A DNA stretch of 64,000 nt from a virus (IMGVR_UViG_3300045051_000846); one strand, 5' to 3'; shown: positions 1,647 to 64,000, counted from the stretch's first letter. The notes: generated from the sequence alone by a model not told the origin. A program made the numbers and translations.

Positions 1647-1665
1647 CCCAAAAAGCCCTTTTGAG
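1647..1665 (+). repeat. dispersed motif site 1: CCCAAAAAGCCCTTTTGAG
   Basis: intergenic; AAAA-N4-TTTT core 1651-1662. Confidence 0.9.
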
Positions 1666-1676
1666 GAGTTCGGCGA

Positions 1677-1901
1677 ATGAGCAACCCGCTCGTGACCCCG
1701 GCCGTCGTCACCATCTACGGCCGGGACGGCACCAAGACCCGCAAGCCGGTCGGGGTGGTCGGGAAGTCCTGCCACCTGGCGACGAAGCCCTACGAGGCCC
1801 GGGAGATCCCGGGCCAGACGACGAAGACGCCCACGCCCGAGGCGTACCAGGAGCCCGCCGAGAAGGTGCGGGTGGACGAGACGTTGAAGACCGGAGGCTG
1901 A
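1677..1901 (+). CDS. DUF2997-like small protein
   Basis: DG...GVVGKSC...T..Y...T.EAY pattern; canonical neighbour of DUF1257 and Ycf46 ATPases. Confidence 0.65.
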   Translation: MSNPLVTPAVVTIYGRDGTKTRKPVGVVGKSCHLATKPYEAREIPGQTTKTPTPEAYQEPAEKVRVDETLKTGG

Positions 1902-1902
1902 C

Positions 1903-60178: not shown

Positions 60179-61237
60179 ATGGGTGTGCTGAACCCCCGGC
60201 TGCACCGTCGCCTCGCCCACAAGTTCGGACACGTCAAGGTGTCCAACGAGGGCGAGGCGATGATCTGTCAGGCCGTGAAGAATCTGAACGACGAGCCGGA
60301 GCTGCTGGTGGCCCACGCCGGCGAGTATTACCAGGTGTGCTGTCCGTACTGCCAGGACACGCGGCACCGCCTGTACGTCAACCACCGGTTCGGGCAGCTC
60401 GACGCCTACGGGCGGCGGCTGTTCTTCCTGGCGACGTGCTTCAACGAAGGCTGCCTGTCGAGCCGGGACAACTTCAAGGACTTCCTGGAGCAGCTGGACG
60501 GGGAGGAGATCGGCGACGCCAAGGTGGTGCAGGGGAAGGTCGTCCCGGAGGAGGCCCGCGAGGTGCTGCCGCCGGGGCCGACGATCCCGCTGCACCGCCT
60601 GCGGCGGACGCACGACGCCCGCGTCTACGTCCAGAGCCGCGGGTTCGACCCGGACGAGATCAGCGAGAAGTACGGGATCTGCTACTGCACCAACTCGGTG
60701 TACTCGTTCGCCCGGGGCCGCATCATCATCCCGTGCTACGAGGGCGGGAAGCTGAAGGGGTGGCAGGCCCGGTACGTCGGCGAGCTCGACTGGAAGGGGC
60801 CGAAGCGGAAGGAGCTGCCGCCCAAATACTTCAACACCCCGGGCGGGCACTTCAAGTCGAAGGTGATCCTGAACTTCGAGCGGATGCAGCACTGGCACAC
60901 GGGCGTGATCGTCGAAGGCCCGACGGACCAGTGGCGGTTCGGCTCGATGGCGGGGTGCATCTTCGGCAACAGCATGTCCGACGTGCAGCGGCGGAAGTTC
61001 GCCGCGGTGTTCAAGAAGCGGGCCGGCGTCCTGCTGCTCGACCCGGAGGAGTCCGGGTCGAAGCAGACCGCCGACACGTTGGCCTTCTTCGAGAAGGCCA
61101 TGCCGGGCCGGTTCTGCGCCGTCCGGCTGCCGGACGGCACCGACCCGGGCTCGCTCGCCCGCGACTTCCTCCGGGAGTACGTGCGCGAGCAGGCCGCCGC
61201 CCAGGGGGTGAAGGTCAAGTACAAGAAGGTGACGTGA
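60179..61237 (+). CDS. DNA primase (zinc finger plus TOPRIM)
   Basis: CPYC.D...LYVN...CFN..C; RIIIP; GWQAR; KY; VEGPTD; LLDP; DPG. Confidence 0.88.
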   Translation: MGVLNPRLHRRLAHKFGHVKVSNEGEAMICQAVKNLNDEPELLVAHAGEYYQVCCPYCQDTRHRLYVNHRFGQLDAYGRRLFFLATCFNEGCLSSRDNFKDFLEQLDGEEIGDAKVVQGKVVPEEAREVLPPGPTIPLHRLRRTHDARVYVQSRGFDPDEISEKYGICYCTNSVYSFARGRIIIPCYEGGKLKGWQARYVGELDWKGPKRKELPPKYFNTPGGHFKSKVILNFERMQHWHTGVIVEGPTDQWRFGSMAGCIFGNSMSDVQRRKFAAVFKKRAGVLLLDPEESGSKQTADTLAFFEKAMPGRFCAVRLPDGTDPGSLARDFLREYVREQAAAQGVKVKYKKVT

Positions 61238-61458
61238 TGGCGACGAACGTGGTGCTGTCGTGGGAGGGGCTGACCCTCATCAGGAAGAACGGCTGGGTCG
61301 CGGTCGTGCTCACGGACGGCGACGCGTCCCGCGTCATGGCCCTGTTCCCGCTCCGCCAGCTGGCCGAGGGGTACATCACGGCGGTGACGGACGACGAAGA
61401 CAAGGAGGGCCGGGCCGCGTACCGGATCGTGGACAAGACCAACCTGGGGGACGGATGA
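61237..61458 (+). CDS. small hypothetical protein
   Basis: TGATG coupling. Confidence 0.6.
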   Translation: MATNVVLSWEGLTLIRKNGWVAVVLTDGDASRVMALFPLRQLAEGYITAVTDDEDKEGRAAYRIVDKTNLGDG

Positions 61459-61802
61459 AACCGGACAGATACGCCGGCCTCCGCACCAACGAGGCCGGCG
61501 TCGACGCCGCGACGGGCGAGACGGTGCTGGTGACGAACTGCATCTGCTCGCTGCCGCACAAGGACACGGAGACCTACACGGACACCCACGACGAGGGGTG
61601 CCTGATGGTCCCGTACGAGGGGCTGGTGTTCACGCTCGACGCCGCGGGCGACGTCGTGACGTGGCGGATGCAGGACATCCGCGGCCGGCAACTGACATCG
61701 GCGGCGGCCGGGGTCACGGCCAAACTGCAAACCCAGATGGCCGCCATCCTGGAGGCCGACCGCAAGCGACAGAAGGCCGAGAACTTCAGGGGGCGACGGT
61801 GA
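61455..61802 (+). CDS. hypothetical protein
   Basis: ATGA coupling. Confidence 0.6.
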   Translation: MKPDRYAGLRTNEAGVDAATGETVLVTNCICSLPHKDTETYTDTHDEGCLMVPYEGLVFTLDAAGDVVTWRMQDIRGRQLTSAAAGVTAKLQTQMAAILEADRKRQKAENFRGRR

Positions 61803-64000
61803 TGGGCGACAAGCCTAAGCTGCGGCGCAAGATCCGGCGGCTCGACCAGGAGGAGAAGAAGAAGCACAAGCGCGTGCTCTCCGCCTCGGTCGGGAAGGCC
61901 GGGATGTGGCCGCTGAACGCCCCCGGGATGCCCCCGCCCGGCCCGGACTTCCTCCGGGCCGCACAGCTGCTCGGCGACTCGACCGAGTACGTGAAGGGGA
62001 CGAAGGCGAAGCCCGCCGTGTACGAGCCGGGGGACAAGCTGCGGGAGCTGTACCGCCGGGCACTGCGGGAGCCGGGGTTCACGCTGGAGGTGTCCGTCAA
62101 GCAGGGCGTCTACGACACGGTCACGTTCGTCCCCGGCCACATCTGGGGGCAGCACGCGGCCGAGTGGGCGAAGTCGATGGTGGACCTCGACGTCGAGCCG
62201 CCCAAGGTGGACGGCCCGCACCCGGCGGACGTGTTCGTCCTCGGCAAGATGCCGTGGAAGGAGGAGACGGCGGAGGGGCGGAACCTGATCGGCGCGACGG
62301 GCGAGATCCTGGTCGACGTCATCAACAAGCTGCACATCAAGAACGCCGGCAAGTGGTACATCTCGAACCTGTGCAAGTTCGCCCCGCCGAACGAGGGGCG
62401 AGACCTGAAGGCCGGCTGGATTCAGGACTGCCTGCCGCTGCTGCACCAGGAGCTGCGGATCGTCCGCCCGAAGTACATCCTCTGCCTCGGGGCGGACGCG
62501 TCGAAGGCCCTCCTCGGCGACAAGTTCAACGTGTCGTACATGGCGGGGCGGGTGGTCCCCTACTCGTTCGAGACGCGGATCGACGCCGACGACGAGAGCC
62601 CGCCCCACACGTGCCACGTGATGACCGTCATCCACCCGGTCAACGTGGTGAAAGACCCGGCCCAGGCCCGGATTCTCGAATCCAACATGGGCCGGTTCGC
62701 CAACCTCCTCGCCACCAACAACCTCGACCTGGAGGAGAAGGGGCTCGACCACCGGTCGTGCATGGTGCTGGAGGACGCGCTCGACTGGATCGAGGAGGCC
62801 CAGGCCGAGCTGTACCAGCAGCCGGAGAAGCTGCGCCTGACGGCGTGGGACTTGGAGTGGCAGGGGCAGCACCCAGTCAACGACGGGAGCTACGTCCGCA
62901 CCATCCAGTGCTCGTGGGGCGACAAGAAGGCGATGTGCTTCGTGCTGCACCACCCCGGTGGCAAGGTCGCCTTCCGGGACCGCGACGGCAAGCCGGCGAT
63001 CAAGCGGCTGGTGAAGGCCCTGAACGAGTTCGTGAAGTGCTCCCGCCCGGTCGGGCACTTCCTGGTGGCCGACCTGGAGTGGGCCGAGAGCCTGGGGCTC
63101 AAGCTCATCGACCACTGCCCGATCCCGCTGACGGACCGCAAGGGGAAGCTCGCGTGGGAGCGGTTCCGGGCCGGCCGGGGCTGGCTCGACACCGCGTACA
63201 TGAACCACGCGATCGAAGAAACCGCGCCGCTGGGGCTGGAAGTCCTGACGATGCGGTACACGATGGCCCCGCGGTACGACATCGAGCTGGAGGACTGGAA
63301 GGCGGGGTACGTCAAGGAGAAGAAGCTCAAGAAGGAGGGCCTGGAGGGGTACGGGGACTGCCCGGACAAGATCCTCATCCCGTACGCCAACTACGACGCC
63401 GACGTCACCCGCCGCATCGCCCTCAGCCTCCTCCCGATGCTCGACGAGGACTACGAGGGCAACTGCTGCTGGGAGGCGTTCTGGGAGTCGATGATCATCC
63501 AAAAAGCGATTTTGAGGATTCACCAGAACGGCATCCGGGCCGACCGGGCGAGGATCGACGAGCACACCAAGAACTTCATCACCTGGAGGGCGAAGAAGGA
63601 GCAGGAGATTCAGGCGTACGCGAACTGGCCGGAGTTCAACATCCGGTCGGTGCAGCAGGTCCGCGAGTTCCTGTTCGGCGAGCACCTGAACGGGAAGAAG
63701 ACGCCGGACGGCAAGCCGGTCCAGATCCGGCCGGAGGGGGCCAAGAGCCTCTACATCGAGCCGCTGCTGGACACGTCGAAGCCGCCGCGGCGGTGGAAGG
63801 ATCTCGTCGCCAAGGGGCTGCACTGGGACGCCAGCCCCGGGACCGGGAAGATGGTGCTCGGCATCCTCGCGCAGGAGAACCTGCACAAGGCGGACGAGAT
63901 CAACATGATCCGGGACTACCGGTTCCTGGACCAGGTGCTGAAGTCCGTGCTGCGGATGCCGAAGGTGGACGAGGAGGACCACTGGATCGAGAACGACGAC
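61802..64000 (+). CDS. polA: family-A DNA polymerase with N-terminal UDG-like domain and 3'-5' exonuclease (3' truncated by the window)
   Basis: open frame from ATG 61802 to the window end, absent from the track; VLGKMPWKEE..G...G..G, YISNLCK, RPKYILCLG, IHP; exonuclease WDLE, DTAY, YANYD; HQNGI; FNIRS.QQ.REFLF. Confidence 0.85.
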   Translation, partial: MGDKPKLRRKIRRLDQEEKKKHKRVLSASVGKAGMWPLNAPGMPPPGPDFLRAAQLLGDSTEYVKGTKAKPAVYEPGDKLRELYRRALREPGFTLEVSVKQGVYDTVTFVPGHIWGQHAAEWAKSMVDLDVEPPKVDGPHPADVFVLGKMPWKEETAEGRNLIGATGEILVDVINKLHIKNAGKWYISNLCKFAPPNEGRDLKAGWIQDCLPLLHQELRIVRPKYILCLGADASKALLGDKFNVSYMAGRVVPYSFETRIDADDESPPHTCHVMTVIHPVNVVKDPAQARILESNMGRFANLLATNNLDLEEKGLDHRSCMVLEDALDWIEEAQAELYQQPEKLRLTAWDLEWQGQHPVNDGSYVRTIQCSWGDKKAMCFVLHHPGGKVAFRDRDGKPAIKRLVKALNEFVKCSRPVGHFLVADLEWAESLGLKLIDHCPIPLTDRKGKLAWERFRAGRGWLDTAYMNHAIEETAPLGLEVLTMRYTMAPRYDIELEDWKAGYVKEKKLKKEGLEGYGDCPDKILIPYANYDADVTRRIALSLLPMLDEDYEGNCCWEAFWESMIIQKAILRIHQNGIRADRARIDEHTKNFITWRAKKEQEIQAYANWPEFNIRSVQQVREFLFGEHLNGKKTPDGKPVQIRPEGAKSLYIEPLLDTSKPPRRWKDLVAKGLHWDASPGTGKMVLGILAQENLHKADEINMIRDYRFLDQVLKSVLRMPKVDEEDHWIENDD
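63499..63516 (+). repeat. dispersed motif site 10: CCAAAAAGCGATTTTGAG, inside polymerase CDS
   Basis: encoded by CAA AAA GCG ATT TTG AGG ATT. Confidence 0.88.

Follow-up and report, generated by a model that had tools for sequence, protein, structure and literature searches.

The window analysed here is a stretch of 64,000 nucleotides (64 kb) of viral DNA (IMGVR_UViG_3300045051_000846) that has a GC content of 68% throughout and carries nearly all of its genes on the + strand. These include a DUF2997/AAA-ATPase module, an SbcCD-like pair, an SF2 helicase, a DnaB-like helicase, a primase-like gene and a polymerase of the UDG-PolA type; a GpA-type terminase lies on the minus strand. Dispersed through the window is a short motif, AAAA-N4-TTTT, ten copies of which (cores starting at 1651, 8762, 13560, 20094, 30833, 38046, 41209, 48280, 56432 and 63502) had been picked out in an original prediction made from the DNA alone, and all ten coordinates were verified. 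The sites are as follows:

1647..1665, + strand: site 1, CCCAAAAAGCCCTTTTGAG, in a 41-nt gap before a 74-aa gene at 1677, with GAGGAG directly 3′ of the motif and 14 nt from the T-tract to the ATG
8758..8776, + strand: site 2, CCCAAAAAGGGGTTTTGAG, occupying the entire gap from TAA to ATG (8777), with no Shine-Dalgarno sequence
13557..13575, minus strand: site 3, CCCCAAAAGTGGTTTTGAG, with its best consensus match on the reverse strand, in a 32-nt gap before a 58-aa gene at 13585
20090..20108, + strand: site 4, CCCAAAAAGGGCTTTTGAG, occupying the entire 19-nt gap from TGA to the ATG at 20109
30829..30848, no strand assigned: site 5, CCCCAAAACCCCTTTTTGAA, an A4/T5 form with reverse-type flanks, before a 514-aa gene at 30861
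38042..38060, + strand: site 6, AGCAAAAAGCCCTTTTGAG, before a three-gene unit (38070-41165) that ends in a GC-rich hairpin
41205..41223, no strand assigned: site 7, TCCCAAAAGCACTTTTGAG, between a GC-rich terminator-like hairpin (about 41175-41200), which it directly follows, and a 397-aa gene at 41230
48276..48294, + strand: site 8, CCCAAAAAGCACTTTTGGT, before an endonuclease VII-type gene (48300-48761) and the SbcD-like gene
56429..56446, no strand assigned: site 9, inside the SF2 helicase gene, CTC AAA AGC GGT TTT AAG, encoding L-K-S-G-F-K
63498..63516, + strand: site 10, inside the UDG-PolA polymerase gene, ATC CAA AAA GCG ATT TTG AGG

When aligned with their flanks the window sites give the consensus CCCAAAAAGNNNTTTTGAG. 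The core, AAAANNNNTTTT, occurs exactly 10 times in the window, compared to 0.04 expected and a maximum of 1 in dinucleotide-preserving shuffles. The set is sharply defined, since relaxing the core to one mismatch, or to a centre of N3 or N5, adds a single match at 50690 that is likely due to chance. The sites contain 10 of the 24 AAAA runs of the window, in agreement with the earlier estimate of roughly half, and 10 of its 19 TTTT runs, and besides the motif no intergenic word set is strongly over-represented in the window or in the related genome G027. As originally described, eight sites are intergenic and two of these (8762 and 20094) span the entire 19-nt gap between stop and start. The orientations can be given only approximately, owing to the fact that the motif is near-palindromic: where eight forward and two inverted copies had been counted, a criterion of A5/T4 plus GAG gives six forward (1651, 8762, 20094, 38046, 48280 and 63502), two reverse (13560 and 30833) and two undecidable sites (41209 and 56432).

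There is no nucleotide relative of the window among GenBank phages, where its polymerase finds remote matches only, and homologues of its helicase number in the hundreds in metagenomes, on contigs that reach 239 kb, from which we take the window to be part of an uncultivated jumbo phage. The public runs that contain the window DNA are rhizosphere metagenomes. A profile search of IMG/VR with the helicase gave 33 loci, and helicase neighbourhoods were compared with those of relatives at 96, 82, 81, 77, 69, 68 and 64% helicase identity. A metagenome scan with the helicase gave one relative only, distant and AT-rich, and an exact-pattern scan of IMG/VR with the consensus gave mostly unrelated single matches, one of which, L043, pointed to the relative G002. 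The family that bears the motif consists of uncultivated phages of roughly 200-235 kb from soil and water metagenomes. Counting the core against a reversed control, TTTTNNNNAAAA, in the whole records of relatives shows clear enrichment in the GC-richer members, and each lineage has its own version of the motif, with the centre GTAC, CCGG, GCGG or A6CGT6. Counts, versions and spacing (with the coefficient of variation, CV, of the intervals) are:

G002: core 14, reversed control 0; version TCYAAAAAGTACTTTTTRGA; mean spacing 15.1 kb, CV 0.40, evenness p = 5e-4
G003: core 63 overlapping matches (24 sites), reversed control 5; version TTCTAAAAAACGTTTTTTAGAA; mean spacing 9.1 kb, CV 0.56, evenness p = 1.4e-3
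G004: core 9, reversed control 0
G005: core 8, reversed control 0
G006: core 8, reversed control 0; version CTCAAAA-GCGG/CCGC-TTTTGAG; mean spacing 12.5 kb, CV 0.47, evenness p = 0.026
G007: core 10, reversed control 1; mean spacing 22 kb, CV 0.70, evenness p = 0.18, not significant
G027: core 30, reversed control 0; version GATCYMAAAACCGGTTTTKRGATC, with conservation stopping at about 24 bp; mean spacing 7.6 kb, CV 0.42, evenness p < 1e-5
L128: version CAAAAGCGCTTTTG

In one further relative the motif is replaced altogether. The complete 224-kb genome G021 (loci L234-L245) has no A4-N4-T4, and carries the AT-rich palindrome TAACTTTT-N-AAAAGTTA in about 20 copies, spaced about 8 kb apart, that lie immediately upstream of Shine-Dalgarno sequences and ATGs (for instance at 3522, 38631, 63085 and 96771). 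The left arm of this palindrome bears what we take to be a resemblance, perhaps coincidental, to the T7 gene-10 ‘epsilon’ sequence TTAACTTTA.

The two copies inside genes make it possible to ask on what selection acts. At both, the motif is spelled by codons that were said to be otherwise rare in the window, and indeed each supplies 1.5-4% of its synonymous family (AAA 3.1%, TTT 1.5%, GGT 2.7%, CAA 4.2%, ATT 3.7% and TTG 3.4%), so that the joint probability of the codon set is about 1e-5 at the helicase site and about 2e-6 at the polymerase site. In-gene copies are kept in relatives down to 64% helicase identity. For instance, the helicase site, CTC AAA AGY GGT TTT, is kept in L005, L006, L007, L127 and L129 while neighbouring synonymous positions vary, and the polymerase site, CAA AAA GCG ATT TTG AGR, in L005, L007 and L129. 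The motif is absent from the helicase site of L128 (70% GC) and L125 (50% GC), and the polymerase of L125 encodes the same I-Q-K-x-I-L-R as CAG AAG CCG ATT CTC CGA, again without the motif. As rare codons are kept in five to six diverged lineages whereas L125 and L128 encode the same residues free of the motif, the synonymous-site conservation that the original prediction had proposed as a check is borne out, and these comparisons lead us to conclude that selection acts on the DNA word itself.

Individual sites nevertheless come and go over longer distances. Site 8, before the SbcD-like gene, is present in 8 of 8 relatives examined (two of the copies being slightly degenerate), with its N4 drifting between GCAC, GTGG, CCAC, GCGC and CGGA. 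In L128 neither in-gene site is left, and the polymerase gene has acquired one at another position. In the synteny between the window and G002 the positions of individual sites are not conserved at about 50% identity, G002 having the motif inside its SbcD-like gene and none in the helicase or polymerase. Such turnover between distant relatives, for a short, palindromic, mostly intergenic and multi-copy element, could be expected of a selfish miniature palindromic repeat (REP- or MITE-like) that enters intergenic gaps and serves no phage function. We regard this as very improbable, in that the copies have neither target-site duplications nor longer bodies (no conservation extends beyond about 24 bp), sites at orthologous positions are retained across protein identities of 64-96% although their N4 changes, the in-gene copies are maintained by rare codons, and the spacing is over-dispersed rather than clustered.

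The spacing itself is of interest. The intervals and the CV of about 0.3 given previously are correct (0.304 by our calculation), and the sites are placed more evenly than expected either from uniform placement (p = 3.9e-4) or from random gene starts (p = 4.2e-4), and the spacing is significantly even in the relatives G002, G003 and G027 as well. The proposed period of about 7 kb, however, did not hold up. Four of the nine window intervals (1651-8762, 30833-38046, 41209-48280 and 56432-63502) fall within 143 nt of each other (7070-7213), a cluster whose post hoc p under smooth nulls is about 0.005. But mean spacing varies from 7.6 to 22 kb among relatives, the interval between the helicase and polymerase sites ranges in them from 6852 to 7337, and G027 lacks the 7.1-kb cluster, with only 2 of its 29 intervals in 7070-7213, so that a strict 7.1-kb period is not replicated. 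What is retained is the motif word together with its density, rather than any fixed period.

Even spacing, and selection for the presence of the motif whatever the gene context, would also suit a site of DNA metabolism, such as T5-like site-specific nicks, points of replication or recombination initiation, or packaging or ejection signals, particularly as inverted repeats rich in AT are readily melted or extruded within GC-rich DNA. This we consider improbable. GC skew climbs monotonically across the window with no reversal at the sites, which also led us to reject multiple bidirectional origins; a symmetric site, if nicked, would be cut on both strands; the mean spacing of the relatives varies by a factor of three; and the precise register with start codons, described below, would be left unexplained.

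The half-sites, CYMAAAA-N4-TTTTKRG, are near-palindromic, and become perfect palindromes in G003, G002 and G027 (of 20-24 bp in G003 and at many G027 sites), with lineage-specific palindromic centres that include GTAC, CCGG, GCGC and ACGT. Since palindromes are also RNA hairpins, the motif might work at the RNA level, as an AU-rich hairpin or patch that marks processing, with leaderless mRNAs made by cleavage, or as a ribosome standby or enhancer site. The sites do lie always on the coding strand from stop to start, some ATGs without a Shine-Dalgarno sequence follow directly, and the stem could reach 8-10 bp in G027 and G003. In the window, however, the RNA of the ten sites folds no better than shuffles (Z-scores -1.7 to +0.8), the A4/U4 stem is absent from several minimum-free-energy folds, and it has at most 4-7 pairs, making any hairpin unstable and inconsistent. 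The flanks are for the most part mismatched, without covariation; just 4 of the 30 G027 sites can pair at position +/-1, compared to 13.8 expected, owing to the fact that most sites join one C-AAAAA half to one CTC-AAAA half. With folds this weak and no covariation in the flanks, a duplex site read by a protein fits better than an RNA hairpin. Additionally, the conserved helicase and polymerase copies would cut or disturb essential mRNAs, and the stems are far shorter than RNase III substrates, for which the intergenic RNase III sites of T7 are the natural comparison. Taken together we think a role in RNA quite unlikely. Two specific candidates of this kind were rejected: a T7-type RNase III processing site, as there is no stable hairpin of about two helical turns at the ten sites, and an intrinsic terminator, as no consistent GC stem is formed by N4 and the flanks, and termination at the in-gene copies would cut essential genes short.

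In all genomes the motif immediately follows a stop codon, which it often overlaps, and immediately precedes a Shine-Dalgarno sequence or start codon. The eight intergenic window sites lie in stop-to-start gaps of 19-64 nt, before the next start or ribosome-binding site and 3-16 nt upstream of a start codon. Across six genomes, the A of the ATG is 9-11 nt from the dyad centre at 22 of 96 sites and exactly 10 nt away at 15 of them, where chance would give only a few. Genes so placed have no Shine-Dalgarno sequence, compared to the 71-85% of all genes that have a Shine-Dalgarno-like word. This pattern fits leaderless mRNAs that would start at a set distance from the motif, with short leaders elsewhere. 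A register precise to a single nucleotide argues that the motif sets the 5′ end of the message and excludes upstream-activator geometries; activator sites of the CRP/FNR, Ogr or Mu C type are thus ruled out, start codons being as near as 3 nt.

Several sites have terminator-like hairpins within 0.2-5 kb downstream. Classical terminators with T-runs lie at 13782-13810 and 26150-26186, the former being a strong one that follows the 58-aa gene after site 3. A recurrent GC-rich hairpin, GGGGCGGGCTCCGGCCCGCCCC, and its variants are found after genes at about 3880-3905, 10105-10135 and 41175-41200 with no T-run, and these we read as terminator-like and ‘I-shaped’. A further sign of expression from the motif comes from the endonuclease VII-type (HNH-like) gene on the + strand at 48300-48761, which is inserted 8 nt after the site at 48280 without a Shine-Dalgarno sequence and is found in the window and, at the same place, in L129 only, being absent from L005, L006, L007, L127 and L128. 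This distribution suggests a mobile, homing-type gene that uses the motif site, the placement being a spot where a free-standing homing gene would gain expression. No tRNA gene adjoins a motif site.

Other features of the window near these units can be noted. The frame that opens at 8777 after site 2 is coding, with a GC content at third codon positions (GC3) of 0.97, to about 9107, where the GC3 signal disappears and the frame 9108-10082 takes over, which might reflect an overlap of 188 nt or else a frameshift, whether programmed or due to a sequencing error. The protein of the latter frame has an N-terminal, AKP-rich basic tail resembling histone H1. At 38708-40699 (+ strand) lies the gene of a 663-aa phrog_1735 protein (E 4e-210) of unassigned function, which is 40-47% identical to proteins of more than 500 cultured phages of widely differing kinds, among them Vi1-like, N4-like, phiCbK-like and marine DSS3 phages. 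Two copies of an 18-nt direct repeat, GGTTCCCGTTCCCAACCC, compared to 0.13 expected, lie at 38675-38692 and 40711-40728 in the leaders of this gene and of the adjacent 138-aa gene. Longer gaps at 17640-17703, 32440-32492, 55380-55400 and 56000-56015 hold AT-rich stretches with -10 hexamers of the TANNNT type (TAAGAT, CATAAT), which are probably host-type promoters and would form a second promoter class besides the motif.

A beta/beta′-like RNA polymerase (RNAP) is encoded in all near-complete motif-bearing relatives (G002, G003, G004, G007 and G027), with a bacterial-like beta subunit (Rpb2_6, E to about 1e-55), and sigma-like proteins are encoded in relatives as well; the sigma-like gene of L005/L006 is absent from the window. 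In G002 (33809-53604; L145, L146) several inteins that carry LAGLIDADG domains split the beta and beta′ genes, and the C-terminal part of beta is fused to the N-terminal part of beta′. A similar fusion of beta to the beta′ N-terminus is found in G027 (21647-26152), where Rpb2_6 and Rpb1_1 share one 1512-aa frame, and this frame itself contains a copy of the motif at 25456. The alpha N-terminal domain (PF01193) was found in 0 of 6 relatives. PF00940, for a T7-like polymerase, had no match in G002, though the control likewise matched in no genome.

The window does encode a stand-alone RNAP alpha-CTD protein of 121 aa with basic tails (29883-30248, + strand; PF03118, E 1.4e-14), which has homologues in G003, G006 and G007 and none in G002, G004 and G027. 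As it is missing from these three motif-bearing genomes, the alpha-CTD protein was rejected as the general reader of the motif. An UP element, which alpha-CTD would read at -40 to -60, was likewise rejected, the sites being 3-16 nt from start codons.

Considering the enrichment of the motif, its placement at gene starts, the start-codon register, the RNAP of the relatives, the layout of the units, the mobile gene, the replacement in G021 and precedents in other phages, the reading that we tentatively favour, and hold to be quite possible, is that of a promoter specific to the phage, with its centre near -10.5, from which mRNAs with no leader or a short one would be made. In this model, for which we infer both the RNA start at the sites and the identity of the reading protein, a double-stranded DNA signal would be read by the phage’s own transcription machinery, the AT-rich arms A4 and T4 lying around a GC-rich centre about 10.5 bp upstream of the transcription start. 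RNA would begin 3-4 nt past the T-tract, so that TTTT-GAG-ATG would give a leaderless mRNA and TTTT-GAGGAG...ATG a very short leader that starts with the Shine-Dalgarno sequence. Transcription would begin anew at these fairly evenly placed sites along a genome with nearly all of its genes on one strand, and a signal inside a gene would arise where no gap is free, or by historical accident, and be held by synonymous rare codons.

A number of observations weigh against a promoter. The window has no RNAP gene within its 64 kb. The near-symmetric motif, a perfect palindrome in some genomes, cannot by itself set a direction; in G027, though 96% of genes lie on one strand, the two asymmetric forms (A5/T4 and A4/T5) number 18 and 12, and one site lies between convergent genes. 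Several switches from minus to plus strand, which are obligatory spots for a promoter, lack the motif, including those in the window at 15937 and 22555-22737. Sites occur genome-wide, including the replication module and the helicase, polymerase, SbcD-like and RNAP-beta genes, with no identifiable temporal class, and their even spread differs from the placement of jumbo-phage promoters before early operons. To our knowledge the promoters of T7 are not evenly spaced, meaning that even spacing is no generic property of promoters.

Of the options originally listed, a promoter or operator is thus the one most favoured by the evidence, with the second half of that option a serious rival, given the near-symmetry, the mixed flank orientation and the obligatory promoter spots without a motif. 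The sites might be bound by a dimeric protein of the phage, such as a global regulator, a roadblock, an insulator or a DNA-compacting protein, that needs them evenly spread, and they would settle in non-coding gaps as AT-rich words are costly inside GC-rich genes. Near-palindromic half-sites that become perfect in G003, G002 and G027, the lineage-specific palindromic centres, the lack of relation between flank orientation and gene direction in G027 and G006, even spacing in four genomes and the selected in-gene copies are all consistent with this, and the 34 dispersed dyad repeats of Cluster O mycobacteriophages provide a precedent (PMC4351075). However, an architectural site has no reason to keep a single-nucleotide register with start codons, there is no conserved second promoter element upstream for an operator to control, and neither candidate partner is conserved, the stand-alone alpha-CTD being missing from G002, G004 and G027 and ParB_N being present in 2 of 7 genomes. 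ParB/KorB loading or operator sites were rejected on the latter ground, PF02195 being found in G007 and, weakly, in G006. On balance we think an operator or organising site somewhat unlikely.

A bolder variant of the promoter reading, which we consider unlikely, is that the sites are symmetric, hairpin- or cruciform-type entry points for the bacterial-like multisubunit phage RNAP or its dimeric factor, with the spacing itself under selection and the whole one-strand genome of some 220 kb covered in regular steps. Were it true, the purpose could be uniform transcription or transcription-driven entry or organisation of the DNA, the reader and the palindrome would co-evolve (from A4-N4-T4 to TAACTTTT..AAAAGTTA), and the architecture would be a new one for promoters of multisubunit polymerases.

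Whichever protein reads it, the motif defines a regulatory DNA signal common to a family of uncultivated giant phages with their own bacterial-like RNAP. If it is a promoter, the operons of these phages could be annotated and the phage polymerase and sigma-like factors tested in vitro, and it would raise the question of how a near-symmetric element directs a multisubunit enzyme. Even spacing together with the maintenance, by rare codons, of copies inside essential genes indicates selection on how densely the signal is placed along the chromosome and not on its presence alone, which is unusual for phage promoters.

Several known systems resemble parts of this picture. The late promoters of T4, read by the host RNA polymerase with gp55, have TATAAATA at -10, which like the motif is a minimal AT-rich element with many copies, some in genes, but is not palindromic or evenly spaced and comes at no cost in an AT-rich genome. 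The stoperators of Cluster A mycobacteriophages and the start-associated sequences of Cluster K are also short repeats in tight gaps that overlap stop and start codons. However, stoperators are asymmetric, oriented with transcription and serve the prophage repressor, whereas no integrase or repressor context is seen here, and the start-associated sequences contain the ribosome-binding site.

A closer likeness in form is the 17-bp dyad repeat of Cluster O mycobacteriophages, TGTTCGGNNNCCGAACA, present in 34 dispersed copies with no function assigned (PMC4351075). It too is a multi-copy inverted repeat with a variable centre, found between and within genes, and the orientation of its centre is unrelated to transcription. 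It differs in being GC-rich and in belonging to 70-kb siphoviruses without an RNAP of their own, and neither even spacing nor a start register is reported for it. The promoters of the N4 virion RNAP have a GC-rich centre at -11 between inverted repeats (PMC4496689), and the geometry would agree with the roughly 10.5 nt inferred here between the dyad centre and the A of an abutting ATG if transcription started at that ATG. But N4 has three such promoters at one genome end, used by a single-subunit T7-like enzyme that recognises an extruded template-strand hairpin, compared to 8-30 sites per genome here, with stems that are A:T-only and weak in the window.

Each jumbo phage that encodes RNAPs has a motif of its own, AT-rich, conserved and about 10 nt long, which is centred near -10 relative to early transcription starts and can be found bioinformatically (PMC7598289). 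The early motifs of phiKZ, AR9 and phiR1-37 share with ours an AT-rich, phage-specific sequence near gene or operon starts, and those phages, like the relatives here, encode a beta/beta′-like RNAP with no alpha N-terminal domain. Theirs lie before early operons, whereas the motif described here is near-palindromic with a GC-rich centre, evenly placed genome-wide and also present in genes, and in the RNAP of its bearers beta is strongly bacterial-like, fused in part to beta′ and with inteins in G002, accompanied by sigma-like proteins and in some lineages by alpha-CTD. Phage-specific promoter-like motifs and dispersed dyad repeats are therefore already known kinds, as in phiKZ, AR9, N4 and Cluster O. 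What is new is the combination of a near-palindromic AT/GC/AT motif that is family-wide with lineage swaps, evenly spaced, maintained inside essential genes and in a fixed leaderless-start register, in phages with a bacterial-like RNAP of their own.

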